Sequence record: MT446414.1
Origin: Escherichia virus TH43
DNA length: 64,000 nt
Strand: one strand, 5' to 3'
A program made the position numbers and the translations under genes. The notes below the pieces were generated by a model. It was not told the DNA's origin and made no database searches. It saw only the letters and a list, made by a program, of their open reading frames with translations. Positions 1 through 58,806 of the stretch are shown piece after piece; position 1 is the first letter of the stretch, and every line of letters begins with the position of its first letter.

Positions 1-207
1 GGCTAACAAAGCTCTTGGTGGTGATTGTATTCAATTATTCAACACAAGACAAGAGGCTCGTCTTGCTAAGAAAACTATAAAAGCTACAAAAGCTTTAGGA
101 ATCGCTGAAAAGGTGGAGATTCATCGTTGGATTGAAAATATCCAGAACAGTGCTGGATTCATATCCAGCAAGGTTTATTACTAGTTGGTAGTAGATATGA
201 TAACTCT

Positions 208-230
208 CAAATGTATATACAGTATAAGAA
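208..230 (+). promoter_or_regulatory. candidate phage-specific promoter motif (AAATGTATATACAGTATAAG)
   Basis: member of the recurrent TAATGTA(T)ATA motif family; lies upstream of the first ORF. Confidence 0.35.
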
Positions 231-5239: not shown

Positions 5240-5256
5240 CATAATGTATACTCCTT
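5240..5256 (+). promoter_or_regulatory. candidate phage-specific promoter motif (ATAATGTATACTCC)
   Basis: TAATGTATA-like motif 27 nt upstream of the 5283 gene. Confidence 0.35.
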
Positions 5257-5282: not shown

Positions 5283-5600
5283 ATGATGACTGATAAGGCA
5301 AAACGTGATTATGCACAAGAACGAAGAACTGCAATCGCAAGGGGTGAAACCGGCGTTGGTAGCAAGAGCGGAGATGCTCAGCGCCACCGTGCACGTCGCA
5401 TCGTTGAAAAGCGCGATGGAAAAGCTGCTGTCCGAGGTAAAGATGTTGGACATAAACGATCAATCAAGTCGGGAGGTTCTAATGCGTCAAGTAACTTACG
5501 TGTTGAATCAGTCTCTGGAAATCGCTCGAACGGCGGCAAAAGTGGAGATCGTGCTGGAAAATCAGCAGGCGGTCGCAAAGGAGCTTTAAGCTCAAGTTAA
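5283..5600 (+). CDS. basic Gly/Ser/Arg-rich protein
   Basis: RBS AGGAG before ATG 5283; terminator follows. Confidence 0.5.
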   Translation: MMTDKAKRDYAQERRTAIARGETGVGSKSGDAQRHRARRIVEKRDGKAAVRGKDVGHKRSIKSGGSNASSNLRVESVSGNRSNGGKSGDRAGKSAGGRKGALSSS

Positions 5601-11452: not shown

Positions 11453-11724
11453 AAGTTCTTGTTTTTAAGTTAAGTTAATTAGTTTTCTTTTGATTTTAAT
11501 AGAGAATCAAAGTCCTAGGAGTCCTCAACCTAAATCAAGGATTTCCTTAATTCTCTATTTTTATCTCGCAGGTGTCTCCTGCCCTTCGGTACTTGCAAGG
11601 GTTACGATGATTGCCCAATATACAAGCCTGCAATAGCTTTACTAGCTATACCATATATACATTACTACTTACTGTTATCTACTACCAAAAAGGTTATAGT
11701 ATAATAGAACCTTATCTGTATAGG

Positions 11725-11745
11725 TGTAATGTATATAGTATACCA
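11725..11745 (+). promoter_or_regulatory. candidate phage-specific promoter motif (GTGTAATGTATATAGTATACC)
   Basis: best copy of the TAATGTATATA motif, 50 nt upstream of the SSB-like gene. Confidence 0.4.
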
Positions 11746-11794
11746 ACCGCTCAAAGAGAGCAACAATCTTAAATTTATATAAGGAAATATTAAT

Positions 11795-12535
11795 ATGTCT
11801 ATGATCCCTGAACTGTCTGTATCCCGTAAATCCAACTACGATGTAATCCCTGATGGCGAGTACGAAGCACGCATTGTTCGTGTAGTAGGTTTAGGTGTTC
11901 ACAATCGTGACCCTTGGATTGACCCTAAGACCAAAGCAGTTACTCCTAAGAACCCAGCTTTCCGTATGGACTTGGCATTTGAACTGATTGGCGTTGACGC
12001 GACTGGTACAGATAATGATGGTAAGGCATTGGACCCACGTCCGGCTTGTCAGTTTAAATCCTTCGATGTAAACCCACGAGCTAAGAACTCTGGTATTCTG
12101 AACCTAATTAAAATGATCGACCCAAGTGTTCAAGCACTGAAAGGTGATTTGGGTTGGTTCAAAGATATGCTGCTTGGTCAGCCTGTCAACATTCTGGTTA
12201 ACTCTTACACCAACAAAGCTGGTGAGAAGAAAAACTCTATCAAGAGCATCACCCCCATCCCAACTAAGTATCGCGATGCTGTAGGTGCTCCTCGTAGTGA
12301 GTTGATCTTCTTCGAACCGTATGCTGAAACTGACGCTAACTTGGCTGCTTATCAAGCTATGTTCCCATTCCAACGTAACCTTCTGACCCAAGCTAACGAT
12401 GCTAAAAACATTCCTCTGGCTGGTCGTGAGGTTACTCGCGCTTCTGACACTGAACAGAAAGACGCGACTCCAAGTATCCCTACTATTAATGAAGAGCCGC
12501 AATCTACCTTTGAAGAAGATGACAGCCCTTTCTAA
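11795..12535 (+). CDS. candidate single-stranded DNA-binding protein with acidic C-terminal tail
   Basis: C-terminus FEEDDSPF; strong RBS; sits after a 340 bp noncoding region. Confidence 0.5.
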   Translation: MSMIPELSVSRKSNYDVIPDGEYEARIVRVVGLGVHNRDPWIDPKTKAVTPKNPAFRMDLAFELIGVDATGTDNDGKALDPRPACQFKSFDVNPRAKNSGILNLIKMIDPSVQALKGDLGWFKDMLLGQPVNILVNSYTNKAGEKKNSIKSITPIPTKYRDAVGAPRSELIFFEPYAETDANLAAYQAMFPFQRNLLTQANDAKNIPLAGREVTRASDTEQKDATPSIPTINEEPQSTFEEDDSPF

Positions 12536-12557: not shown

Positions 12558-12583
12558 TAGCCACCTTCGGGTGGCTTTTTTCG
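12558..12583 (+). terminator. rho-independent terminator
   Basis: AGCCACC-TTCG-GGTGGCT perfect hairpin plus TTTTTT. Confidence 0.65.
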
Positions 12584-12594
12584 TTGGAGTTAAA

Positions 12595-12942: not shown

Positions 12943-13087
12943 GTGTGATGTTGATCTCCCTTTGCTTCAGAGTGCACAGGGAGTGGCATTTGCAACGACA
13001 TTAGAGTGGTATCAGGATAATTATACAACCTGTGCTGCTAATCATAATGGTTTACTGAAAGCTCTCAAGGAGAGAGGAATACAATGA
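12854..13087 (+). CDS. o-spanin-like secreted lipoprotein candidate
   Basis: signal peptide MCALAMSMSAC; Pro-rich with Cys residues; starts inside 12595..12942 in a different frame. Confidence 0.4.
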   Translation: MCALAMSMSACSTSDNSRQLMPLPTNLKAECDVDLPLLQSAQGVAFATTLEWYQDNYTTCAANHNGLLKALKERGIQ

Positions 13088-13308
13088 TCAGAGCGGAACT
13101 TACAATACCAGAAGGTGTTACTCAATTTCATGCAGTATGGGAACATAATAATCAGATTTGGGGACGAACATTCAAATTCTTCATCAACGATGGTGAGTCT
13201 TATTGGGCTTATTATATAGCAGAAGATGATGAATGGGATAGAATTAGGCAACCTAGTGATCACATCCCTTGTCCTGACACAGCAATGTATTTGTTCTGTG
13301 TAGTTTAA
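13084..13308 (+). CDS. hypothetical protein
   Basis: ORF track. Confidence 0.45.
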   Translation: MIRAELTIPEGVTQFHAVWEHNNQIWGRTFKFFINDGESYWAYYIAEDDEWDRIRQPSDHIPCPDTAMYLFCVV

Positions 13309-13332: not shown

Positions 13333-13983
13333 ATGAAGAAGAAGACAACACCCACACGCTATCGTATTCATGGCATTCCTATTAAATATTATCCAACCTT
13401 CGATGAATTCTATCGAGAGAACTGGAAAGTTGTGCATCGCTATTTCATGTATGACATTAAAGATTATCACGAAGCAGAGGATGTTGCTCAGGAAGTGTTA
13501 CTGAACGCTTGGCGTTTTGTGTTCGCAAAGCAAGAAGAACTTCTGCTCACTGATGAAAAAGATATTGAACACATGACCTATCGTGTTAAGAATATCATCT
13601 GGTCTATTCGTTCTAATCGTCAGACAGTTGGAGATCGACGTATCTATTCTATTCCAGAGGCTGATATGTTTAGACCTCCTGAGATGAACTCATGGGAAAG
13701 TCCTTTAGAGATTGCGATGGATAAGCATGACTCTACTGGAGACCCATTCTTGGAATCTAGAATCTTTTTCTTCTTCCAAGACTTAAGTGATATTATGGAT
13801 ACCAAGAAAATGGCAAGCATGTTCTCTATGCTCTTCCTTGGAATACCTCATGATCATATTCAGCAGCAGTTAGGAATTTCACACGGAACCTTCTATCGCC
13901 GATATGCAGAGAATCGTGATCTGTATGAAGCTGTAGTAGAGAAGCACTTTGATAAAGAAGATCTTCAAGGGATGATTCAATAA
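13333..13983 (+). CDS. phage-encoded sigma factor (sigma-70 family, ECF-like)
   Basis: region 2-like RYFMYD...[14 protein letters not shown]; region 4 HTH-like [21 protein letters not shown]. Confidence 0.65.
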
Positions 13984-14579
13984 TGAGTAAACCATTAGTA
14001 GTAATTCTGAATGGACCTCCGGGTTGTGGTAAAGACACAATCGCTAATGCTTGGCTAGAATTCACTAAAGAGAACATCGAATTTAAGCCACATATAAAGG
14101 CTTTTAAGGAGCCTATGTACCGAGTTGCTGCTGCTGCATTAGGTATTCCTATTGACGAGTTCATGGAGCTGTATAGCGACCGTGAGTGGAAAGAACGAAG
14201 CCGTCCTGAATGGGGCGGTAAGTCAGTTCGAGATTTAATGATTGCAACTAGTGAGAGCTACTTGAAGCCAATGTTTGGTGACACCTGTATGGGTAAATTG
14301 GCTGTTAGTAGTATCAAACAACAACTGTTAGGACAGAAAGATGTTATCGTCTTCTCTGATGGTGGATTCAAAGCAGAGGTTTCAGAACTGGAAGAACAAT
14401 TCCATGTTCAAGTAGTTCAGATTCTTCGTGATGGTTGCACTTTTGAAGGAGACTCTCGTTCTTACATCGAAGGCAGTCAGAGAAACACATATTACCTAGT
14501 AAACGATTCTACTGTAGAAGATGCAATAGACTATTTAAATTGGATTGTTGTACGGACACGGAGAGATCTCTATGTCTGA
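13983..14579 (+). CDS. P-loop kinase, deoxynucleoside monophosphate kinase-like
   Basis: Walker A GPPGCGKDT. Confidence 0.55.
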   Translation: MSKPLVVILNGPPGCGKDTIANAWLEFTKENIEFKPHIKAFKEPMYRVAAAALGIPIDEFMELYSDREWKERSRPEWGGKSVRDLMIATSESYLKPMFGDTCMGKLAVSSIKQQLLGQKDVIVFSDGGFKAEVSELEEQFHVQVVQILRDGCTFEGDSRSYIEGSQRNTYYLVNDSTVEDAIDYLNWIVVRTRRDLYV

Positions 14580-16754: not shown

Positions 16755-19700
16755 TTACTCTTTAGCTCGAACTCTAACCCGGAGTTTAGCTTGACGCTTA
16801 CTTCTCTCCAACTTGTCAGACAGAGAACCACGTTTGACTTTCAACTCTCCCTCGTCATTATACTTCTCCAAGAACTGTAAATACTCTTGTCGAGTAGTTG
16901 TCTTGTAAGAAGGAATCTTAACATCAGGATTCTCTTCAATCACACGTCTAATCTTCGCTACATCATCCCGCCCTAAAAGTTTCCCTTTAGCTTGTTCAGC
17001 AGTAGAACCAAAGATTTTCTCCAGTGCTCTAGATTTGTTACCACCCGCTGAAGCAGCACCAAGTTTCGCAATAGCAGAGTAATCGTCAGCACTAAACCAA
17101 GCCACTGGATTATCTCCATATTGTTTCTTGTTCTCCGCAGCAGTTTGTAAAGCACGCACAAAGCGACGGTTATTACCAGCTTTGTCAGCACCATGAACCC
17201 TATCTAGAACTTCTGCTACACTAGCCAGCTCCTGCAAGTCTTTCCCTTCGATAAAAGCTTTCTCTGCTTTGTTAGCAAAGTCATCTTCCTGCTTCTTAAT
17301 ACTTTCCAGTATATCAGAGGAGGCTTGAGACCTTTCATCTTCCGGCAACGCCGAACGAACTTTCTCCATTTCCAACTCTTCATCCTGAAGTTTCTTCAAC
17401 TCAGAATCTACCTTCCTAGCATCTTCGATAGCTTTCGAAGTATCTGCATCCACCTCTACCTTCCCATCCATATCACCAGTTGCCTTAGCAATATCTTTCT
17501 CGATTGGTGTCATCTTCTCAAAATCCTTAGCAAACTTTGAAATATCCGATTCAATACGAGAACGAGCATTCTGGTGCTCAGTAGGAGTCATAGGTTTCTC
17601 CAGAAGAGAGTAACGGTTATCCATATAAGAACCTGCAAAGATTTCTGCATCTTCTTTAGGAATCCCTTTATCCTCCATAGAACGCATCAGGCGCTTATGA
17701 ATGTCATCACGTTGGCGTTGTATTGCCATGCGATCGTTCTCTGCTTCCTGAGCTTCTTTGAGCTTCTTGTCACGTTGTACACGGGAATCAATGTCGTATT
17801 TACGGTTCATCTCTTCCGCCTGTTCGTACATCTTATTCCACTTAGCTTCTCGAGCATCTTCTTCCGCTTCAGTGAGACGACGCTTACGGTCAATGTAATC
17901 ACTTTCTGCGTTGTGGATACGTTCGATAATACTACGGAAACGCTCCGGTGGCACAGGAGAGTTCTTATCGTGGTGAGCTGCTAACTGTTTCAGTGTACGA
18001 CCTTCCTGAGACTCACGTACCGACTCTGGTAAATCTTTCAACAGGTTCTCCATCTCCGATTTCTGAGCCGCTATAGCTTCGAGAGACTGTCTTTCTGTCT
18101 CTACTGCTGCCTTGGCATCACTACGAGCTTTAGCCCTGTTACGGAGCGTCTCAAGACGTTCTTGACGTGCTTGCAAATGTTTAGCTGCTGCTTCGTACTG
18201 AGAGTTCTTATTAGCTTTGTTGAACATGTTAACTTCACGGTTATATGTGTTAATGAAGCCATCCCATATATCCTTCATCTGTCCCACTTCCAAAGCATCT
18301 TCCCTTCCAGCCTTCTCTGAAGCTTTAAACTTCCCATCTACAAAGTCTTCCATCAACTTACGCATAGCATCTTTTTGAGCTGGACGTAATGGCTCTGCAT
18401 CAAGAAGTAAATTGATTTCGCTGTGTAACTCTTTCTTCTGGTCAACCAGCTTAGGAGCATCAGCTTTATCAAGCTTCTTATTCTCTGCAAGAGCTTCTTC
18501 ATACATCCTATTAAATTCATCATCACGTTGTTTCTGATACAGACGTTCAGACCTACGCTTCAGTGAGTCTAGACTAGTCACGTTCCCACCAATACCTTTC
18601 TCCTCAGCACGTAATGCCTTGGTAGCAATATCAGAAGGTAGACCACGTTCCTTAACCCAATCAGCAAACGAAGAACGAACACGTTGTGACTTAGCAGCAG
18701 CAATACCCTGTTGAGAAGCAAGTTGGTTACGAGCCATCTCAGCATGACGTTCAGCATTGTTGGCTTGGTCTTCCTGACGGATACGACGCATCAACTCTTT
18801 CGGGTCACCTTTATAAGAAAGGAAGTTCTCAGCTGTGGCTTTAGCCTTAGCACCTGCCGTATACAGAGAACGAGCAAAGCGATCTGCACGATCTTTAGTA
18901 GCTTGACGGGCAGCACTTGACATAGCAGCCAGACGCTCTATTCCAGTAGCTGGTTTAACAGGCTCAGGCTCAACCTCAGGAGCTTTAGGAGCACGGGTAG
19001 GTAATGGCTCGGCTTGAACGATAGGCTCCTCAGGAACGCTCTCAGCAGCCTTGCTAGCCTCTTCTGCTTCTTGACGTTTACGAGCTTCTGCAACAGCACG
19101 ACGCTGAGCAACTAAATCCCTTGCGGTAGTAACTGGTTCTTGTGGAACTGGCTCTGGAGTTGGTTCTTCCTGAACCCTGTTAGCTTCGGCTTCTTGACGT
19201 CTAGCTTCAGCTTCCTTCAAAGCACGTCTCTGTGCGACCAAATCACGAGCAGTTAAAGGAGAGGTTTCTGGAGAGGAAATTTCTTCCGTCACAGTAGTAG
19301 CAGAAGGCTCCCGAACCGGTTCGATTTCCGTGTCATTTTGAGTCTTAAATTTAATGTCATCAACTTCAGGTTCTTTCTCCATCGCAGCACGGGCTTCATC
19401 AGCCTGAGCACGAGCACGAGTTACTTCCATATCACTACGAGCAAGAGAACGAATAGCTTCACTGTTAGCAGCCTGCTGGCTTTCACGTTGAGAGCGAGCA
19501 CGGTCAGAACGGAAACGGTTAAGAACATGCTTAGCAGCACCAAGAGGATTCTTAATCAGAACTGGAGGAGCAGCTTCTTTAAAACCATCAGCAGTCAGAG
19601 AAGTCCAACCACGGTCTTGGTTACTCATTAACTTAGCTGTGTTATTCAGAGTGAAAGCATCTTGGATTGGGTTGAAACCTTCAGGCATTCCTTTAAGTTT

Positions 19701-21173
19701 CTTCAAACCACCAATAGCAGTTTTCATTTCTGGAGATACATTATCAGCCAGTTTCTGAAGCTCTGTAGCTTTCTCTATGAAGTTATTAAAGTCTTCACCA
19801 TCACGAGCTTTGAATCGATTAGCTTCGTTATAGAAAGTTTTATAAGCATCAATGAAATCACGATCTGCTTGGGTACGATTCTTAATGTCCATAGCACTAC
19901 CAGTAAAATCACCACTGGCACGAGCAGCTGTTAATTCACGATCAAGGTTATCCAGAACATCAGACAAAGATTTAGTGTTGTCTTTTGTATAATCAGCCAT
20001 TGCATCTTTCATTGCCACAGCTTGTTTCTGGTTATGTTCGTTGTCTGCGTTAGCTTTACCTTGCTTCTTATTAGGAGCAGCAAGAGGATTTAAACCCGGA
20101 ACATTAGAACGATCTTCCAGAATAGTAGCAGCCTTCTCGGCACGACTTTGATCAGTATTAAGGATACGCTGAGCAGCAGGAGAGTCCATAGCCACAGCAT
20201 CAGTAACACGGAAACCGTTCTCATCGAGGAGATTAAGAGCAGAAGCTGTGTTAGCGTTATCAGCTTTAGAGTAAGCCTCTCTTAGTTCGTCTGCATTTTT
20301 AGCTGAGCGAATAGCTTCATCTTCAGCGGCAATGTCAGTCTTAACGTGTTCTGGAGTACGGTCAAAGACTTGAGGACTAGGACGACTTATCAATCCATGA
20401 ACCCCACCAATAGCCCCACCGTAAGCAGCACCCATCGCACCTTCTTCTACAGCACCTTCAATGATATTAGCAAGAGTAGTGTCATCACCATATTTGTTCT
20501 GTGCTTCAGCAGCACCTACAAGAGCACCACCTTTAGCACCAGCCACTGCGTTAGATGCTACACTCTGACCAACACGACCTAGGGTAGTAGAAGCAGTGCC
20601 TGTCATCCCCGGAAGAATCTTCTGAGCTGCAAAGTTAGCACCACCAACTAAACCAGCATCAAGAACAGACTTCTCTTCACCCTCTTCTGGAGTTTGGTCT
20701 GCATAAGCTCTACCTGTTTCACGAGCTGCAATAACAGCAGCAGCTACAGCTGGGTTAGCAACCGTAAGACCAATATCAGCGGCAACGCCAGCATACTGAC
20801 CTACAGATTTACCTACACCATCTTCGATTTGAGAGAGACGTTCTTCTAGTAAGTTTTTAGAGTTGTCTTGAATACGCTTACCGTAACTTGTCTGTGTACC
20901 AGCTAGATTTTCTCCAATCTCAACTAATCCACCAATACCTCTAGCAGCACTGGCTGCAATGTTTGCACCACCTGATTGAATAGCGTTGGACACACCTTGG
21001 GCAAAATCACCAACCAACCCCGGTTGCTCTTCTTGTTTAGGAGCTGGAGCAGCCTCAGGAATCGTTCCACCCGCTGCTTTATACTGTTCTCGCATCTGAG
21101 ACTGTTGCTCAGGGGAGGCATTCAAATACGCAGGGCTTTTAGAAGCTTCTTCCCACGGTTTTAAGTTCGCCAT
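16755..21173 (-). CDS. large virion structural protein (internal/ejection protein candidate), 1472 aa
   Basis: long charged coiled-coil regions with internal tandem repeat; last gene of late block. Confidence 0.55.
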   Translation of the reverse strand: MANLKPWEEASKSPAYLNASPEQQSQMREQYKAAGGTIPEAAPAPKQEEQPGLVGDFAQGVSNAIQSGGANIAASAARGIGGLVEIGENLAGTQTSYGKRIQDNSKNLLEERLSQIEDGVGKSVGQYAGVAADIGLTVANPAVAAAVIAARETGRAYADQTPEEGEEKSVLDAGLVGGANFAAQKILPGMTGTASTTLGRVGQSVASNAVAGAKGGALVGAAEAQNKYGDDTTLANIIEGAVEEGAMGAAYGGAIGGVHGLISRPSPQVFDRTPEHVKTDIAAEDEAIRSAKNADELREAYSKADNANTASALNLLDENGFRVTDAVAMDSPAAQRILNTDQSRAEKAATILEDRSNVPGLNPLAAPNKKQGKANADNEHNQKQAVAMKDAMADYTKDNTKSLSDVLDNLDRELTAARASGDFTGSAMDIKNRTQADRDFIDAYKTFYNEANRFKARDGEDFNNFIEKATELQKLADNVSPEMKTAIGGLKKLKGMPEGFNPIQDAFTLNNTAKLMSNQDRGWTSLTADGFKEAAPPVLIKNPLGAAKHVLNRFRSDRARSQRESQQAANSEAIRSLARSDMEVTRARAQADEARAAMEKEPEVDDIKFKTQNDTEIEPVREPSATTVTEEISSPETSPLTARDLVAQRRALKEAEARRQEAEANRVQEEPTPEPVPQEPVTTARDLVAQRRAVAEARKRQEAEEASKAAESVPEEPIVQAEPLPTRAPKAPEVEPEPVKPATGIERLAAMSSAARQATKDRADRFARSLYTAGAKAKATAENFLSYKGDPKELMRRIRQEDQANNAERHAEMARNQLASQQGIAAAKSQRVRSSFADWVKERGLPSDIATKALRAEEKGIGGNVTSLDSLKRRSERLYQKQRDDEFNRMYEEALAENKKLDKADAPKLVDQKKELHSEINLLLDAEPLRPAQKDAMRKLMEDFVDGKFKASEKAGREDALEVGQMKDIWDGFINTYNREVNMFNKANKNSQYEAAAKHLQARQERLETLRNRAKARSDAKAAVETERQSLEAIAAQKSEMENLLKDLPESVRESQEGRTLKQLAAHHDKNSPVPPERFRSIIERIHNAESDYIDRKRRLTEAEEDAREAKWNKMYEQAEEMNRKYDIDSRVQRDKKLKEAQEAENDRMAIQRQRDDIHKRLMRSMEDKGIPKEDAEIFAGSYMDNRYSLLEKPMTPTEHQNARSRIESDISKFAKDFEKMTPIEKDIAKATGDMDGKVEVDADTSKAIEDARKVDSELKKLQDEELEMEKVRSALPEDERSQASSDILESIKKQEDDFANKAEKAFIEGKDLQELASVAEVLDRVHGADKAGNNRRFVRALQTAAENKKQYGDNPVAWFSADDYSAIAKLGAASAGGNKSRALEKIFGSTAEQAKGKLLGRDDVAKIRRVIEENPDVKIPSYKTTTRQEYLQFLEKYNDEGELKVKRGSLSDKLERSKRQAKLRVRVRAKE

Positions 21174-21204: not shown

Positions 21205-21222
21205 TCCTATATACATTATAAG
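21205..21222 (-). promoter_or_regulatory. candidate phage-specific promoter motif (minus strand TATAATGTATATAGGAGG)
   Basis: TAATGTATATA motif ~35 nt upstream of ATG 21173. Confidence 0.35.
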
Positions 21223-34706: not shown

Positions 34707-37484
34707 TTACTCGGTTGGCATCTCTACACGAAGATCTACCCAACGGCCCTCTGGAATGTCAACAGGTTCTCCATCAACAACCCCTTCTTTTTCATTACTA
34801 GCAAAAGAAGGAACCTCACTGTGAACTCTGTGGTAAGTCTTAAGGGTTATATCACCAATCTCATCCACTTCATAATCCACCCACAGTAAAGGGAGTCCAT
34901 TAGAGTTTTGAGGAATAGAGAATCCACCCCCATTACCACCCCAAGAAGGGTCGGAGTTAAAACCTAAGACTCCAGAGATCTTATAAACACCAACATCTAA
35001 TCTTTCTGTGATTACGCCTTGTGCTTGATCATTAACTTCAGAGGAGCCATCTGGTTTAAGCTTGACAATAGGGGATGCTATTTTAACAAAACCGTTAACA
35101 TCCACAGTTGTGTTTAAGTCTCTGACCAAGAAGTCTCTCCAGTTAGTAATCAAAGCTGGGTCATTAGTTCTTTGACGATACCGAGGAGCTTGGTTGGTGA
35201 TGGTAGAGAAACCAATCTGAGACCAATTCCCACCACGACCTCCTTCAGAGATGGTCATAATCTCTGCATAGGAGTAGGGTGCTCCATTACCCCCGGGGAA
35301 CGGGGAAACATCTTGACTGTAGAATCCAATACCTGTTGGCAAATCTTCACTACCATAAAAAGTCGATTGACCATACTGATAGTGCATAGCTCCTAGTTTT
35401 TCAGAACCCTCGGCTGGAGTCTTCCCTCCTGTACCACCACTTATTACCGGCAAAGCTATTCGAGAAGAATCGGAGTTATTGAAATACCCCCAATCTGCAT
35501 CTGTAATAAAGAAGGTGTGTTCTCCAGAACCGTCCAGAAGTTTTGTGTCTGTTGAACTTTGAACAAGCTTATCCACCTTCAGATTGACACGAGCAGCAGC
35601 TTCAGAGGTCGCTCCTGTACCTCCTTGAGCAATATTCAAAGCTACGGTCCCTTTTGATGCACTGTAACACCCCCAAGATACGTCATTGATATAGATGTAC
35701 GATCCGTAGTCAGGAGAAATAACTTTGGTTTCCCCAACCTCTTCCCTAAATCTCCCCAAACCTAAAGAAATACGGGCATCATAAGCAGAGGTAGCTCCTG
35801 TTCCACCGGAATCTAAAGAAACAGGCACTGTAGAGCCATCAGAAACTTTGATTACTTGAGCAATGCCAGAGTTATTCATCTTCCACGCATATTGTGTATT
35901 CGGGGAATGGAAACTATTATAACTCTCTGGTCCCGTCTGATCGTTACACTCTACACCTTGGACCAAGGTGGCCCTACGGAGTGCACCAATATCAGTAACA
36001 CCTGTACCTCCCTGAGCAACAGAAAGAGGGGTAGTCAATCCACTAAGGGATGTGATATCAGAGTTAGCGCCTGAAGATGCTGCCCCAACATTAGCTGCTG
36101 TTAGAATCACATTCCCGTTAGCATCATCAGGAGCTTTACCGTTAACTGTAACAATATAAGGAACCTGAGACAAAACACGACCTTTGTAGTTAGCATCTTT
36201 ATCAGAGTCAGGGGAGCGAATAGCTTCGCCACCTGTCCAATCAGGAAGTCTTATGTTAATAAAATTAGAAGAATCAGCATCAGTAATACCATCAGCCAAT
36301 TTACCCCAAGAAAAATATTGACGAGCACCAGCTTGCCACTCTGTTTCAGAAACTACAGGCAATTGACCACTGACTAAAGAGGGTCCAAGGTCTGCTGCGG
36401 TTGCTTTCGGAACAAGACGACCGTCCGCAGGAAGAACTCCCGGATATGAAACAGTTTTAGCTGGGTCATAAGGGAACATCACCATCTCACCTAGATATAA
36501 AGATGGGTTTCCTGTTGGAATGGTAATGTCGATGTTACCTGTTGAATCAGGAGCACGAGAGTTAACAGTTAGGATACGGCCTTCTGTTTTAACTGGAGTG
36601 AGGGTCTTATCCGCTGCAACAGTATAGAATTCATACTTCGTTGAGTCCCACACCAAAACCTTTTCCCCTACCTGTCGGTATTGAGCATCTAAATCAGCTT
36701 CAGCTTTCGATTGGTATGTTTTAGTTGTTTTATCAAACTTATCGTTAATCTCTTGGCGACTATACTGAGCCACGTTCAAAACATTACCAAGACCTACAGT
36801 TTCTTTGTTGATCGTAAGAGATACTTCACCGTCAAGTGTAGGGCCTCCGTTAACAGAAATAGAACGAACAGATGGTATCAAGTTGGCAATATCTTCGAGA
36901 GTTGTTTTGTGAACAGTATTATCATCTTTGTCAACATAGAAACCAATGTCCCCCAATTCTGGTGTACCGGTAGGAGCAGTAGATAGGTCAGTAACAGAAC
37001 CATCTGCACCTTTCTCACCTTCAGGAATACCAAGTTTGATTTCACCAGTTTGGTTATTGAAAGAACCAGTAGCTTCAGAACCCGGAGGAAGGGTAGTCAC
37101 TGTAACTTTCATAGCCAACAGGATATCAAGTTGCTGATCGACTTCAATCAGTTTTTGGTTAATCAAAGCAATAGAGTTGTTAGCATTAGCAACAGCTGCG
37201 TTAGTCTGTGCAATCAGTTGCATCAGTCGAGCATCTTGATCTTTAAAGTCCTGTTTCAGATCTTCAATATCTTGCTGTAATAGAATACCTTGCTTATAAA
37301 GTTTCTCCACTTCAGCAATAAGATCATCAACTGTACCAAACTTAGACTCAGCTAAAAGTGCCCAATATTTAGAATCAGCAGCATACTCAGCTGCTTGTTT
37401 ATAGGCTCCGATAGAGCCTTCTGTTGCACCAAATTGGCCTACATTATTTACTGTAGTAGGTTCTTGGTTGTTATAAACGATCAT
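34707..37484 (-). CDS. tail fibre protein, 925 aa
   Basis: N-terminal tail-fibre-like region and coiled coil; long beta-rich body. Confidence 0.55.
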   Translation of the reverse strand: MIVYNNQEPTTVNNVGQFGATEGSIGAYKQAAEYAADSKYWALLAESKFGTVDDLIAEVEKLYKQGILLQQDIEDLKQDFKDQDARLMQLIAQTNAAVANANNSIALINQKLIEVDQQLDILLAMKVTVTTLPPGSEATGSFNNQTGEIKLGIPEGEKGADGSVTDLSTAPTGTPELGDIGFYVDKDDNTVHKTTLEDIANLIPSVRSISVNGGPTLDGEVSLTINKETVGLGNVLNVAQYSRQEINDKFDKTTKTYQSKAEADLDAQYRQVGEKVLVWDSTKYEFYTVAADKTLTPVKTEGRILTVNSRAPDSTGNIDITIPTGNPSLYLGEMVMFPYDPAKTVSYPGVLPADGRLVPKATAADLGPSLVSGQLPVVSETEWQAGARQYFSWGKLADGITDADSSNFINIRLPDWTGGEAIRSPDSDKDANYKGRVLSQVPYIVTVNGKAPDDANGNVILTAANVGAASSGANSDITSLSGLTTPLSVAQGGTGVTDIGALRRATLVQGVECNDQTGPESYNSFHSPNTQYAWKMNNSGIAQVIKVSDGSTVPVSLDSGGTGATSAYDARISLGLGRFREEVGETKVISPDYGSYIYINDVSWGCYSASKGTVALNIAQGGTGATSEAAARVNLKVDKLVQSSTDTKLLDGSGEHTFFITDADWGYFNNSDSSRIALPVISGGTGGKTPAEGSEKLGAMHYQYGQSTFYGSEDLPTGIGFYSQDVSPFPGGNGAPYSYAEIMTISEGGRGGNWSQIGFSTITNQAPRYRQRTNDPALITNWRDFLVRDLNTTVDVNGFVKIASPIVKLKPDGSSEVNDQAQGVITERLDVGVYKISGVLGFNSDPSWGGNGGGFSIPQNSNGLPLLWVDYEVDEIGDITLKTYHRVHSEVPSFASNEKEGVVDGEPVDIPEGRWVDLRVEMPTE

Positions 37485-37493
37485 ATGTTCTCC

Positions 37494-38240
37494 TTATCTG
37501 TATCTACGAATGCCGTACACTTCTCGTGAGCTATTAAGACGGCTAATAGTATTAGGGATTACTAGAGGGGAACCTGAGTATTCTGCTTTCTTACTCTGCT
37601 CCACAATCTCGTCAAGGATTGCTTTACCAAGTGCTGACCACTTTTGAACTCCATTATCATCTTGAACGAATAAAGAAGCATGACGCAGCGTAAAATATAG
37701 AAGCAGCTCAGGAGCAATAGTTAGAATAGCACTGGTATCTTCATCAGAGTGGAACTCCGGTGGGTCTGCATAATAACTTAAAACTACAGCATTCTCAGCA
37801 GGGATTTCAGGTGCTCCATCATCAGGATAAACAGGAGTATCTGCATCAATTAGAGGGTAGAACATAAACCGACTACCTAAACGAGCAAAAACAACTTCCC
37901 CTTGATTCCAATTGGATGGGTTGACTGAGTTATTTCTCTTCAACCAGTCAAGTTCTTCAGGAGAGGTTACTCTGAACATCATCCCATTTGAAGCTCTCAT
38001 AATCCATTGTGCTTCTAAAAAGTCAGGAGGGATAAAAGCAATACCATCCTTGATATCTAAATATACTTCTTTTTCCAGAGGAGGAATTCGTAAGTTACGA
38101 TAAATTTCCTTCTCTGCAAAGTTGATGAAATTTGGAATTTGATTAACAAATTCGTCGTCATCCCTATCGGCCCAGAGTGACACAGCCTTTTTAAGCCAGC
38201 CATAGGTGTTGATAGGATACTGAACTTCAGGCATTGCCAT
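37494..38240 (-). CDS. virion structural protein (head-tail adaptor candidate)
   Basis: position directly downstream of capsid; RBS AGGAGG. Confidence 0.45.
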   Translation of the reverse strand: MAMPEVQYPINTYGWLKKAVSLWADRDDDEFVNQIPNFINFAEKEIYRNLRIPPLEKEVYLDIKDGIAFIPPDFLEAQWIMRASNGMMFRVTSPEELDWLKRNNSVNPSNWNQGEVVFARLGSRFMFYPLIDADTPVYPDDGAPEIPAENAVVLSYYADPPEFHSDEDTSAILTIAPELLLYFTLRHASLFVQDDNGVQKWSALGKAILDEIVEQSKKAEYSGSPLVIPNTISRLNSSREVYGIRRYR

Positions 38241-38270: not shown

Positions 38271-38287
38271 GAGAGTACATTACATAT
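38271..38287 (-). promoter_or_regulatory. candidate phage-specific promoter motif (minus strand ATATGTAATGTACTCTC)
   Basis: TAATGTA motif between capsid terminator and next gene. Confidence 0.3.
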
Positions 38288-40539: not shown

Positions 40540-41619
40540 TTAATCTACGAGATACTTAAATGCATCTTCGTGACGAATGCGACCCTCTGAAAATGCCTTG
40601 GCAACCTTAGCGTTGTCTGGCGTATTGGAAGTACGAGACTTAGAAGAGTCGGACTTCACAACCTTACGTGGAGAACCCGGACGTTTAATCTTAGCCATTA
40701 CCTGTTGCTTACCTTTATCGAATTGGTATGCTTTGTGCAAAGCTAGGAAAATAGACGGACGATTCTCTTTCAAGACTTCTTCTTCTGTAGCACCGAGATC
40801 AATTGCATATTGCATCAGATTCTGATAAACACTGTCATCCCAATTAGGAATTTCACGTTTCAATACATTAACACATTCGGTACATTTAGCTTGGAAGGCT
40901 TGCTGTTCTTTTGCTGCTGCATCTTGCTTGATCTTAACTTGCGCTTGTTCAAGCTGCTGACGACGAGCAGTGTACTTCTCTAAAAAGCGTTTGTTTTCAA
41001 CATAGGCTTGTGGATCTTCAACTGCTAGCTTGTCCCAATCAAAACCGTTATAATCTTCAATTACTCGGTCTGCTTCTAAGGACGCTAATTCTAATACATC
41101 CGCTAAACCACCTACACGCTCTTCAAAAGCTTCAACATGACGCTGAAGAACAGCTTCCCGTTCAGTCATATCGGAGCCAGTAACATAGCCATTTGATAAC
41201 TCTTCAATAGTCATCTCACGACCATCAGGAAGGGTGATAACAGTTTCATAATCTACGTCGAAAGCATCACCTTCTTCGTATTCACTGTCAGTAGAATCAT
41301 CGTGATCTACATCACTTGGTTCTTCATCTTCAACAACTTCATCAGAGTCGTCGTCTGAATCACCTTCATCGTCTTCTCCTTCCTCTTCTGAATCATCCCA
41401 TCCTTCTTCATCTTCGAACGTGAGTTCATCACCCTTACCGAGAAGGTCGGAATCAAAGTCAAAGTTATCTCCAGTATCTTCTGGAAACTCACTGTCAATG
41501 TCCACTTCTGGTTCTTGTTCAGATTCTAATCGACTTAGGTCTTCTTTAAAAGATCCTTTCAAGTCATCAAGTTGGAGGAATGATTTAAAATCGTTTGGGT
41601 CTAAAAATTCATTTGCCAT
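40540..41619 (-). CDS. scaffolding protein (highly acidic N-terminus, coiled coil)
   Basis: D/E-rich N-terminal region; position between portal and capsid. Confidence 0.55.
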   Translation of the reverse strand: MANEFLDPNDFKSFLQLDDLKGSFKEDLSRLESEQEPEVDIDSEFPEDTGDNFDFDSDLLGKGDELTFEDEEGWDDSEEEGEDDEGDSDDDSDEVVEDEEPSDVDHDDSTDSEYEEGDAFDVDYETVITLPDGREMTIEELSNGYVTGSDMTEREAVLQRHVEAFEERVGGLADVLELASLEADRVIEDYNGFDWDKLAVEDPQAYVENKRFLEKYTARRQQLEQAQVKIKQDAAAKEQQAFQAKCTECVNVLKREIPNWDDSVYQNLMQYAIDLGATEEEVLKENRPSIFLALHKAYQFDKGKQQVMAKIKRPGSPRKVVKSDSSKSRTSNTPDNAKVAKAFSEGRIRHEDAFKYLVD

Positions 41620-41855
41620 TAGGAATTATCTCCTGCACTATTGATAGCAGCTTTTATGACCTCTTTTAAGCTACCAACCATTTTATACTTTTGATAACAC
41701 TCTTCGCGTTTCTTTGACTCATGCACATCAGTTAAAACTATGTCTTTCATGAGGGTTTCTTTTAATGCCTCTAATGCTGCGTCAAGAATGCCGTTATGAT
41801 TGAGAGCCGCCAAAGCGGCGGCATGCTCTTTATTGAATTGTTGTCTAGTATTCAT
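41619..41855 (-). CDS. small hypothetical protein
   Basis: ORF track. Confidence 0.4.
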   Translation of the reverse strand: MNTRQQFNKEHAAALAALNHNGILDAALEALKETLMKDIVLTDVHESKKREECYQKYKMVGSLKEVIKAAINSAGDNS

Positions 41856-41864
41856 TTAGTGTCC

Positions 41865-44108
41865 TTATTTTCTACTACCAAGCTTTCTATTAGGAATCCT
41901 AGAATCTTTGAGAGAACTCTGTTGTTCTTTCTTAGTTTCATTTGCTTCTTTCTTTTGGAGTTCCAAAGTCTTATCTTGAATTTTAGCTTGCTGGTCTACC
42001 TTCTCAAGATCAACCTGATGATTCATGGTCATCTGAAGTTCTTTCAGTATAGATTCATATTGACGAACCTGTTGCTGAAGGAGAGAAAGCTTATGCTTAG
42101 CTTGTTCAAGAGTAGCTGAGTTATCTTCCTTACGATTTTCAAGAGTCATCTGATCAGCAGCATTCTCTTGCTTGAATTGCAATTCTTCTTGACGTAAGCT
42201 GAACTCGTCCGCAGCTTTCTGCTGTTCAAACGTAGTACGTTCACGCTGGTCGAATGCATCAGCAATCATCTTCTGAGAAGAAGCCTGTACGTTCTCAACC
42301 TGAGCTTTAGTCATCTCGAGCTGGAGGATTTCCATCGGAGAAGGCTGAGGAGGTTGATACTGTTCAAGAGGCATAAGATATTTATGAGTGTCTTTAATAC
42401 CCATCAACTCAAAGATCTGTGCAGTCATATAACGATCTTGCTCCAGAGTAAAGAGAGGTGCAAGCTGAGCATCAGCAGCAATCAATTGCTTCAGGCTAAT
42501 CAGTTTCTGTGCACGTTCTGATTTCTCAGTAGGAGAGATAGCTACAACAACTTGTAAATTATGACGAGCTGGTAATTGTTTAGGATTTACTTCAACCATA
42601 CCACGAGGGGTTTGAACCTGTAAAGGAACTTCACCATTTTCTCTGATAAGGTTGTAAATACCACGCATTAATTCAACCATACCATTATGAGCAATGTTAC
42701 GACAGACCATACGGAGACGGTTCTGTGCAGCATTCATCATTAGACCTACGGTTGCATATGCGTTATCATTCTTAAATACATCAGGGTTAATACCCATACC
42801 AAGTTTAGTAACACCTGTACGAGTTTCTTTCAACTCTTCAGACATTCCTAACAGACCATCAATACCTTGAGGTAGATTGTGGTAAGGGAAGAGATCAATC
42901 GCATCCTGACGCTCCATTTCAACTACACCACCCGGACGGTTGTCTAGTAAAGAACGACGGTCATAGGCTCCTACAATGGCTTTATATCGACCATAGTTTG
43001 CGTTGTTAACGTTATCAATGTAACCACGGACAAGTGCTGTACGTAGGTCTTGAATATCTTTAGTAATGTCATACACGGATTGACCATAGAAGGAACCCGG
43101 AATAGGATAAGGACAGAAAGTAACAAACGGAATGCTAGTTACTTCTTCACAAGAGAGAATATGCTCACCTGCTTGGATTACTTGATAGAGTTTAGATTCT
43201 TTGTTATTATCCAATACACCTGTACGGATGTAATGCTCATAAACCCAAACCATGCAAGCCACATCTTCAGTGTCCACACCAATGTCTGCATCAATGTCCT
43301 GTCTCCAGTCAGTACGTGACCAAGCAACTGTAGACTGAGTGGTGTCCATTGTATCAGTCCAGTCGTTAAACGCTTCGATCTCGTCTTTAGGGAAGCCCAT
43401 TGCTAATAAATCATCTTTAGATTTACGTGTGCGATGACAGAAATACTGAGCATCTGCAAAAGAGGTAGCATGTTCATCAACAAAGATTTGCTCTGAAGGA
43501 ACATATTCTACTTTAACACGTTTTACTGTTTGTTTGTAAGTTACTTTAACATCCACTGTTCCATCATCGTTTTCAGTGGTAAAAATTTCTAAATCTTGAA
43601 GTCCGCCTGCTTCCATACCTTGTACGTATGCAGCCAAAGCTTCTGGAGGTACGCCCTCAGCCTCTTCTGTTTGAGTGGAGGTTTGTTCATCCCAATAGTA
43701 TTTGATAAAAGAGTTACGTGTAACCAAACATTCCTGAGCCGCTGAGGAAATGATGTTATATCCCGGATTATCACGAAGCAAAATTTGGTTTACCAGCTTA
43801 GTTGCTACATCAGCTGCATCAGAATCTGCTTGGTTGTCCGCAACAAACGTCACCGCTTCATCGCCTGAACAGAATACGTTAATGATATCTTGGAGAGTTC
43901 CGTTAACAGACTCCCATACTGTACGGTCTACCCAACTAGAGCTTCCAGCAGTTACTGGAGCTGGTAAGTTTCCGTAGAAATATTCCCATGCTTCACGAGA
44001 ATAGCCTTTTACAGCGAGGTCTACATAACCTTGTGCATAATTGAATCGACGTTGAAGGTCAACGCGTAATTCATCCAAAATATCTTCACTAAATTTCTTC
44101 TTAGCCAT
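41865..44108 (-). CDS. portal protein
   Basis: 747 aa ORF directly downstream of terminase large subunit; C-terminal coiled coil. Confidence 0.65.
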   Translation of the reverse strand: MAKKKFSEDILDELRVDLQRRFNYAQGYVDLAVKGYSREAWEYFYGNLPAPVTAGSSSWVDRTVWESVNGTLQDIINVFCSGDEAVTFVADNQADSDAADVATKLVNQILLRDNPGYNIISSAAQECLVTRNSFIKYYWDEQTSTQTEEAEGVPPEALAAYVQGMEAGGLQDLEIFTTENDDGTVDVKVTYKQTVKRVKVEYVPSEQIFVDEHATSFADAQYFCHRTRKSKDDLLAMGFPKDEIEAFNDWTDTMDTTQSTVAWSRTDWRQDIDADIGVDTEDVACMVWVYEHYIRTGVLDNNKESKLYQVIQAGEHILSCEEVTSIPFVTFCPYPIPGSFYGQSVYDITKDIQDLRTALVRGYIDNVNNANYGRYKAIVGAYDRRSLLDNRPGGVVEMERQDAIDLFPYHNLPQGIDGLLGMSEELKETRTGVTKLGMGINPDVFKNDNAYATVGLMMNAAQNRLRMVCRNIAHNGMVELMRGIYNLIRENGEVPLQVQTPRGMVEVNPKQLPARHNLQVVVAISPTEKSERAQKLISLKQLIAADAQLAPLFTLEQDRYMTAQIFELMGIKDTHKYLMPLEQYQPPQPSPMEILQLEMTKAQVENVQASSQKMIADAFDQRERTTFEQQKAADEFSLRQEELQFKQENAADQMTLENRKEDNSATLEQAKHKLSLLQQQVRQYESILKELQMTMNHQVDLEKVDQQAKIQDKTLELQKKEANETKKEQQSSLKDSRIPNRKLGSRK

Positions 44109-45783: not shown

Positions 45784-46251
45784 TTAACTCTCGTCCGCTT
45801 CCTCCTCCTTTTCAGCGTCCTCAGAGTCCTCTGGAGGTAGCACATCTGCACCTAATGCTCCAGCCAAGAAGTCCTTGATTTGTGCGTTCAATGAATCTTC
45901 ATTAATTACATTCTCTTCCTCAATCTTAATCTCAACAGAAGCTGCCTTCGGATATACCAGATCTGCAACTTTACTTGCAGCCTTGAATCTAAGATCAGGT
46001 GGAATATTTGGATCTTCATAAATTTGAATCAACACTTCATCAGGGGACAGATGACTTGAAGCAACTCGGTCCAACATGAGCTGTGTCAACTTACCTCTAC
46101 TACCTTTGGGTCGTCCGAACTTATTTCCCTTTTGGAACTTCCCTGTGCTTGGCTCCATACCACGGTTTTCCAATTCATCAGTTACACCGGGCAATCTTCC
46201 TGTAACCTCAGCTACCTGTGCAGGCGTGAGTTCTCCTTTTTCTCCAAACAT
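45784..46251 (-). CDS. terminase small subunit candidate
   Basis: small basic/acidic protein directly upstream of TerL with HTH-like GNKFGRPKGSRGKLT. Confidence 0.5.
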   Translation of the reverse strand: MFGEKGELTPAQVAEVTGRLPGVTDELENRGMEPSTGKFQKGNKFGRPKGSRGKLTQLMLDRVASSHLSPDEVLIQIYEDPNIPPDLRFKAASKVADLVYPKAASVEIKIEEENVINEDSLNAQIKDFLAGALGADVLPPEDSEDAEKEEEADES

Positions 46252-46260
46252 CTTATACTC

Positions 46261-46275
46261 CTTCTACATTATCGT
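46261..46275 (-). promoter_or_regulatory. candidate phage-specific promoter motif (minus strand ATAATGTAGAAGGAGTATAAG)
   Basis: TAATGTA motif immediately upstream of the terminase small subunit. Confidence 0.3.
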
Positions 46276-58317: not shown

Positions 58318-58740
58318 TTGAAGATAGAGTTAGAATACCCCTTCGTTAATGACTGGCGATTGGGCTACTTAAGAACAAGCAGAGACGGTAGGAAGCGTGT
58401 TGATTTGTATAATACCGACACGGAGAGGACAACCATTTCTTACGCAAGATATTTAATGTCTTGTCACATAGGCAGGTACCTAACTGAAGACGAGGAGGTT
58501 GATCATATTGACAGAAATAAAACTAATGATGACATATCTAATCTTCAGATACTTTCCATAGAAAATCACAGAAAGAAGTCAACATTAGAAGCAACTACTG
58601 GAAGAACAATGATTTCAGTTGTTTGCTCTTATTGTGGAAGATCTTTTGAAAAAGAAAAGCGAAATGTTAAATATGCAAATTCTTTTTGTAACAGATCATG
58701 TGCAGGTAAGTATAACGGTTTCAAATCTATCGGGGCGTAG
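58318..58740 (+). CDS. HNH homing-endonuclease-like protein
   Basis: EEVDHIDRNKTNDDISNLQILSIENHRKK HNH motif. Confidence 0.55.
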   Translation: MKIELEYPFVNDWRLGYLRTSRDGRKRVDLYNTDTERTTISYARYLMSCHIGRYLTEDEEVDHIDRNKTNDDISNLQILSIENHRKKSTLEATTGRTMISVVCSYCGRSFEKEKRNVKYANSFCNRSCAGKYNGFKSIGA

Positions 58741-58806
58741 TCTAGTGGAACAGGCAGCGAGCTTCTAACTCGCCTTACGAGGGTTCGAATCCTTCCGTCC
58801 CGACCA
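58731..58806 (+). tRNA. tRNA-Arg (anticodon TCT)
   Basis: hand-folded 76 nt cloverleaf: 7 bp acceptor, D-loop with GG, anticodon loop CTTCTAA, T-loop TTCGAAT, encoded CCA. Confidence 0.8.

Follow-up and report, generated by a model that had tools for sequence, protein, structure and literature searches.

The locus at 13333–13983 on the plus strand of the window (i.e., the whole 64,000-nucleotide stretch of DNA analyzed here) raises the question of whether its product is a sigma factor and, if so, of which kind it is and from which promoters it would act. The initial annotation had read it as a phage-encoded, ECF-like sigma factor, with which the phage reprograms the host RNA polymerase (RNAP) instead of encoding a polymerase of its own. 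Exactly this interval is occupied by an ATG-to-TAA open reading frame (ORF) of 216 amino acids:

13333–13983 (+), stop codon included: sigma factor gene, 216 aa, ortholog of phiEco32 gene 36 (PHROG 1740, Bas88_0026, 9M7Y_F).

The protein is 100% identical in tblastn to Bas88_0026, which is annotated as "RNA polymerase sigma factor", and 81% identical over 214 aa, i.e., over the full length, to gp36 of phiEco32 (phi32_36 of the Kuravirus phiEco32; tblastn and alignment). PHROG 1740, 'RNA polymerase sigma factor', matches it with E = 2.9e-44, and a PDB sequence search returns chain F of 9M7Y, "RNA polymerase ECF sigma factor", as a full-length match (E = 4.9e-119). It belongs by full-length homology to the phiEco32 gp36 family represented by PHROG 1740, and we regard it as nearly certain that the ORF is the gp36 ortholog, which would replace sigma70 on the E. 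coli RNAP core for middle and late phage transcription. The case made here is one of homology, residue conservation and promoter positions.

The functional framework for this family comes from published work on phiEco32. The 9M7Y structure is a cryo-EM reconstruction that shows E. coli RNAP together with gp36, gp79 (a second phage protein) and the promoter P68 (Xu et al., NAR 2025, PMC12276001). Both phage proteins co-purify with RNAP from infected cells (PMC12276001 and work cited there), and gp36 directs transcription in vitro (PMC12276001). The early genes of phiEco32 are transcribed by the sigma70 holoenzyme and the middle as well as the late ones by the gp36 holoenzyme, which uses an AATGTA element centered at -11.5 (PMC12276001). 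In the structure, gp36 residues 1–103 adopt a sigma2-like fold on the clamp helices, residues 138–214 a sigma4-like fold on the flap-tip helix and the -35 region, and the linker between them passes through the active-center cleft, while gp79 ousts sigma70 region 4 and steadies the C-terminal domain of gp36 (PMC12276001). The demonstrations of RNAP binding, in vitro transcription and structure pertain to phiEco32 gp36 only (PMC12276001), and the 81%-identical window protein would be expected to behave in the same way. It can be divided into the same three parts:

13333–13641 (+): N-terminal sigma2-like domain, residues 1–103 (limits from PMC12276001; pLDDT about 90).
13642–13749 (+): long linker, residues 104–139 (role from gp36 residues 104–137; pLDDT 52–65 in the free model).
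13750–13980 (+): C-terminal sigma4-like domain, residues 140–216 (groove residues kept; pLDDT about 80–87).

The predicted N-terminal domain would bind the clamp helices and recognize and melt the -10-like AATGTA element, whereas the predicted C-terminal domain would bind the flap-tip helix, helix 1 of gp79 and the -35 region. The linker, into which the 2-residue insertion relative to gp36 falls, is expected to thread the active-center cleft in the manner of sigma region 3.2. The window protein was aligned to gp36 and every residue named in PMC12276001 was compared, with the following result for each contact surface:

Clamp helices: gp36 D44, E47, E49, D50 and E54; all identical in the window protein.
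-10 region: gp36 E79, H80, Y83, R84, W90, S91, S94 and N95; all identical in the window protein.
-35 region: gp36 Y186 and R187; Y188 and R189 in the window protein.
Flap-tip-helix groove: gp36 M138, I142, F166, L167 and F204; L140, I144, F168, L169 and F206 in the window protein.
gp79 groove: gp36 F146, M164, L167 and I169; F148, M166, L169 and I171 in the window protein.

Counted as distinct residues, 22 of the 23 published contacts are identical, the sole change being the conservative replacement of M138 by Leu, and most of the contact positions are invariant across the 20 clusters of homologs found in 5.8 billion proteins. Along with PHROG 1740, the 81% identity and the match to 9M7Y_F, this bears out the claim of a sigma factor. 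The two segments from which that claim had been made also held up: the region-2-like one beginning RYFMYD corresponds to residues 36–62 (nt 13438–13518), where both Sigma70_r2 and ECF models align, and the helix-turn-helix-like one assigned to region 4 corresponds to residues 176–197 (nt 13858–13923), which include Y188 and R189, the equivalents of the gp36 -35 contacts Y186 and R187. The start codon can be taken as right because the N-terminus is residue 1 of the gp36 chain that was expressed and solved.

On these grounds, a mechanism can be proposed in which a highly diverged two-domain sigma of group-4 (ECF-like) architecture would take the place of sigma70 on the RNAP core. Its sigma2-like domain would dock on the beta-prime clamp helices via the acidic patch formed by D44, E47, E49, D50 and E54, and would read and melt AATGTA at -14 to -9, with W90 and Y83 acting as wedges and E79, H80, S91, S94 and N95 reading the bases. 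The linker would run through the active-center cleft, and the sigma4-like domain would lie on the beta flap-tip helix, with Y188 and R189 touching the -35 region. gp79, encoded outside the window, would evict sigma70 region 4 and clamp the C-terminal domain of the phage sigma; as a consequence, host and early transcription would be turned off, and gp36-dependent middle and late transcription would rise from six, possibly seven, AATGTA promoters.

As to the kind of sigma factor, structure and sequence speak with different force. The AlphaFold model of the window protein, with the homolog alignment as input, consists of two confident helical domains and a floppy linker. Compared by Foldseek with the PDB, it ranks 9M7Y_F first (E = 3e-21); ranks 2–30 are almost all ECF sigmas, aligned over about 185–200 columns with probabilities up to 1.0 but with E-values of only 2e-3 to 1, and the ECF neighbors that follow 9M7Y_F are Mtb SigE, SigL and SigH, AlgU, sigmaE, SigW, SigK and BldN. 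The model has the sigma2-like and sigma4-like folds and the linker that structurally define the sigma-70/ECF type, and has no sigma1.1 or sigma3 domains. Since the Foldseek neighbors are nearly all ECF sigmas, the term 'ECF-like' is right for architecture and fold. The further description of the segments as typical of the sigma-70/ECF family was overstated. Pfam Sigma70_r2 (E = 5e-4, residues 26–61) reaches 20.3 bits where its gathering score is 24; Pfam Sigma70_r4 and r4_2 have no match in the protein; and NCBIfam TIGR02937 (sigma70-ECF), whose alignment spans both domains (residues 23–191), attains 21.2 of the 42.9 bits required. Weak alignments at residues about 22–62 are given by more than 15 ECF subfamily models of NCBIfam, and none of the curated sigma-70/ECF sequence thresholds of Pfam or NCBIfam is reached.

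The same tendency appears across the family. A precomputed Pfam domain is present in one of the 20 homolog clusters; Sigma70_r2 is weakly detectable in 15 of 20 members (best E = 1.9e-5) and Sigma70_r4_2 in a single one (E = 0.0036). A profile built from the 20 homologs and compared with PDB sequences finds no ECF sigma at significance, the best being SigW with E = 0.025. At the level of sequence, the link of the gp36 family to sigma-70 is confined to a region 2.1/2.2-like motif, with region 4 being undetectable. In the search against sigma-70 region profiles, which the initial annotation had put forward as a check, Sigma70_r2 aligns below threshold and region 4 gives no match; with all of the sigma-70 profiles sub-threshold, a rule that discards candidates for want of a significant profile hit would nearly have rejected a true sigma factor.

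These observations also bear on an alternative in which the phage has recently acquired a genuine ECF sigma of the bacterial type from a host, one kept under anti-sigma control and directed to ECF promoters (AAC at -35, CGT at -10). Deposited records do name the protein 'RNA polymerase ECF sigma factor', and the best neighbors outside the gp36 family, in sequence as well as in fold, are ECF sigmas. Yet every ECF model remains below its threshold, TIGR02937 by the margin given above, and the homologs amount to only 20 clusters, all of about 213–216 aa and at least 44% identical. Moreover, the known partner gp79 is an activator rather than an anti-sigma, and gp36 departs from canonical sigma2 and sigma4 structures, with helix 1 rotated by about 70 degrees, a short helix 4 in the C-terminal domain and the flap-tip helix rotated by about 100 degrees (PMC12276001). 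The functional hallmarks of ECF sigmas, namely a cognate anti-sigma and ECF-type -35/-10 elements, are not seen here: the cognate promoters are of the AATGTA type, and the sigma gene has a 74-aa ORF on one side and a dNMP kinase gene on the other. A recent host capture is accordingly very improbable. Even less probable is an ordinary helix-turn-helix regulator (TetR-like or similar) that would bind DNA alone and be no RNAP subunit, for which one might adduce weak C-terminal matches to TetR_N (E = 0.22) and TetR-family structures (E = 0.018–0.21) along with the missing Sigma70_r4 match, but which is effectively refuted by the 81%-identical gp36 sitting on the RNAP core as a sigma (9M7Y) and transcribing in vitro, by the conserved clamp-helix and flap-tip-helix contact residues, and by fold matches after gp36 that are almost all ECF sigmas and span both domains.

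The gp36-type sigma can be compared with several known systems. It shares with bacterial ECF sigmas (e.g., Mtb SigE, SigL and SigH, and E. coli sigmaE) the sigma2-linker-sigma4 organization, a length of about 200 aa and the region 2.1/2.2-like motif, and differs from them in its 10–20% identity, in its promoter element, and in depending on, or being stimulated by, a phage co-factor. The gp47 protein of Salmonella phage 7-11 is likewise the sigma of a phiEco32-like phage, with late promoters at similar genome positions, but is only about 15% identical and recognizes a bipartite GTAAtg-N16-aCTA element; phage 7-11 is also without a gp79 homolog, a middle gene class or host shut-off (PMC8948821). 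A parallel with AsiA and MotA of T4 has been struck by the authors of PMC12276001: in both cases one protein disables sigma70 region 4, a second brings promoter specificity, and a switch from early to middle transcription results. In T4, however, the host sigma70 is remodeled and stays on RNAP, whereas the phiEco32 type swaps in a phage sigma, and the two systems share no homology.

The immediate neighborhood of the gene is that of a phiEco32-like phage. A 3-kb stretch around it matches 98 phage records, all of them phiEco32-like coliphages or Shigella phages, with the best matches (4E8, Bas87, Bas88, ECBP2 and SU7, of the genus Suseptimavirus) at 90–93% nucleotide identity and phiEco32 itself at 77%. 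On this sequence similarity, the source of the window is a phiEco32-like coliphage of the subfamily Gordonclarkvirinae, closest to ECBP2, SU7 and Bas88. The order gp40-spanin-sigma-dNMP kinase-exonuclease is shared with phiEco32, inserted or replaced genes aside. Against the 214-aa gp36, the window protein has two additional linker residues and Leu in place of M138, and its gene is preceded by the 74-aa ORF (13084–13308), which is unrelated to the macro-domain gene 37 (Appr-1-p processing) that it stands in for. The GTP-binding gene 35 of phiEco32 is missing around the sigma gene of the window. The dNMP kinase (13983–14579) has 198 aa versus 297 aa in phiEco32. Its ATG overlaps the stop of the sigma gene as TAATG, which suggests translational coupling; the sigma gene's own ATG is preceded, at a distance of 7 nt, by an AAGGA ribosome-binding site.

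The idea of a phage that redirects the host RNAP, in place of encoding a polymerase, agrees with the phiEco32 literature and with the gene content: the nine ORFs of at least 380 aa in the window code for DNA polymerase, virion, tail-fiber, portal or terminase proteins, and none for an RNA polymerase. To this it must be added that the system also needs gp79, which is encoded outside the window. Within the 64 kb, tblastn finds nothing credible for gp79 (best E = 0.085); by synteny with Bas87 and Bas88, its gene would lie about 19–20 kb upstream of the sigma gene, i.e., about 5–6 kb before window position 1. Homologs of gp79 occur in 97 records as against 98 for gp36, the nearest relatives included, and that of Bas87, at 76% identity, has retained the hydrophobic residues of helix 1 through which gp79 docks on gp36.

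If the protein is the gp36 ortholog, its cognate promoters should be recognizable. Six gp36-dependent promoters have been mapped in phiEco32, 5' of genes 6, 13, 26, 40, 58 and 68, with the consensus tAATGTAtA (PMC8948821, PMC4331800), and a published supplementary table has already predicted all six sites for ECBP2, which belongs to the same clade as the window. When phiEco32 is scanned for the motif, all six published promoters are recovered, and each has a counterpart in the window at the same relative position and in the same orientation, 12–60 nt 5' of the homologous gene:

185–217 (+): P68 equivalent (middle), TTGGTAGTAGATA-N12-AATGTATA, with the 9-mer AAATGTATA at 209.
5242–5250 (+): P58 equivalent, TAATGTATA, intergenic, 33 nt 5' of a 105-aa ORF at 5283–5600.
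11727–11735 (+): P40 equivalent, TAATGTATA, 60 nt 5' of the gp40 homolog at 11795–12535.
21210–21218 (-): P26 equivalent (late), TAATGTATA, 37 nt 5' of the 1472-aa virion gene at 16755–21173 (-).
38274–38282 (-): P13 equivalent (late), TAATGTACT, AATGTA core intact, intergenic, 34 nt 5' of the ORF at 37494–38240 (-).
46263–46271 (-): P6 equivalent (late), TAATGTAGA, 12 nt 5' of the ORF at 45784–46251 (-).

The P68 equivalent is identical to phiEco32 P68 in its boxes and their spacing, and is intergenic, 20 nt 5' of the ORF that begins at 237; the P6 equivalent has the same sequence variant and the same spacing to its gene as in phiEco32; and the P40 equivalent, which heads the transcription unit upstream of the sigma gene, is invariant in seven relatives. 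Over the whole window, TAATGTATA is not over-represented, with 17 occurrences at no more than one mismatch versus 20.6 expected, and only position and orientation are informative. Its placement is non-random, in that all but one of the four exact copies fall between genes when a conservative gene map is used (P = 0.003), the exception sitting in a spurious 56-aa antisense ORF.

Two features of the wider gene map may be recorded here. The 1472-aa protein encoded at 16755–21173 (-) is a highly charged, Ala/Glu/Lys-rich member of the function-unknown family PHROG 14629 and the homolog of phiEco32 gp26; it would be driven from the late P26 equivalent, and is likely to be an internal virion or ejection protein. 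A tRNA gene at 58731–58803 (+) (Rfam RF00005, 52.9 bits) lies among small plus-strand ORFs of the early region, and the tRNA-Arg of phiEco32 (record 66354–66427) is likewise found among small early-region genes.

How the sigma gene is itself expressed is less obvious from this promoter set. A distance of 1.6 kb separates it from the P40 equivalent upstream, and between the two stands a conserved hairpin:

12559–12585 (+): intrinsic-terminator-like hairpin, AGCCACC-TTCG-GGTGGCT followed by T6, directly 3' of the gp40 homolog.

It is kept in phiEco32 with one change, which falls in the loop. P40, gene 40 and the terminator look like a self-contained unit that is probably highly expressed, and, given the conserved terminator between P40 and the sigma gene, the latter probably relies on read-through. 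No convincing promoter dedicated to the sigma gene was found, and a sigma70-type scan of the upstream region stays at the level of shuffled sequence (12 vs 9.3). At 13283–13291 (+), 42 nt 5' of the sigma start and within the 3' end of the 74-aa ORF, there is a copy of CAATGTATT with an intact AATGTA core and no -35-like box; in phiEco32, TAATGTTTA occurs 67 nt 5' of gene 36. The copy of CAATGTATT could be a weak autoregulatory promoter or a chance occurrence.

The region just upstream of gene 40 holds a further candidate. In an ORF-free stretch of 342 bp (11453–11794), two exact copies of TAATGTATA stand back to back, one being P40 (+) and the other, at 11656–11664 (-), belonging to a longer element:

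11656–11688 (-): seventh gp36-type bipartite promoter candidate, antisense and leftward, TTGGTAGTAGATA-N12-AATGTATA, with boxes and spacing as in P68.

Its upstream box, TTGGTAGTAGATA, includes -37G and -34A, the positions contacted by the C-terminal domain of gp36 (PMC12276001). The window has exactly two copies of the whole 33-nt bipartite pattern (P68 and 11656–11688) versus none expected by chance, and phiEco32 also has exactly two, in the same two places, the antisense copy there being at record positions 36680–36712 (+). Across seven relatives, which represent three genera, the antisense candidate keeps both of its boxes unchanged, whereas its spacer is scrambled. The candidate is absent from the published six-promoter lists compared here, and a PLoS Pathogens 2026 paper on Kuravirus infection makes no mention of the 11453–11794 region. 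A degenerate third copy of the bipartite pattern, TTGGTAGTAGAAA-N12-AATGAATA with two mismatches, is found at 41849–41881 (-), at the 3' end of the portal gene (41865–44108, -) and upstream of the next minus-strand ORF (40540–41619); it might serve as a further, weak late promoter.

Leftward transcription from the antisense candidate would enter a core of about 92 nt (11498–11589), in which 88 of 92 positions are invariant in seven phages from three genera. The first 100 nt of this region are 97% identical to phiEco32, versus 70–80% for the flanking genes, and frame-shifting indels speak against coding. The core has a long hairpin, ATAGAGAAT...ATTCTCTAT, followed by T5 on the plus strand, and also a GCAGG..CCTGC hairpin. 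For both strands, its RNA folds only weakly better than shuffled sequences (z about -2.1 to -2.2), and the region varies too little for covariation to be tested. A search of the conserved non-coding region against Rfam returns no family at either the gathering or a permissive threshold. Nothing similar to the core turns up in 5,426 complete E. coli genomes, and no repeats other than the promoter boxes are found within it. It could serve as a terminator, an RNA, an origin or a protein-binding site. That the seventh promoter fires antisense into the core, yielding a new gp36-dependent non-coding or antisense RNA, or else a transcript that activates an origin or cis-element, is a tentative proposal, which we consider rather unlikely than likely.

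The sigma gene itself is already known, its ortholog having been studied biochemically and by cryo-EM and being annotated as such in deposited genomes; it adds little here, all the more as promoters in the ECBP2/SU7/Bas88 clade had been predicted from the phiEco32 consensus. It might better be seen as a calibration case, wherein a true sigma can be recognized only with the help of a family specific to phages, of a structure already solved and of a comparison of folds. As it fails every curated sigma-70/ECF sequence threshold, screens that use profiles only would miss it. The antisense candidate and the invariant core are the only items that might repay more work, and they may be new. Should they prove real, the phage transcription program of the phiEco32 type, which has been thought to be fully mapped, would gain a non-coding or antisense output or a function linked to an origin.
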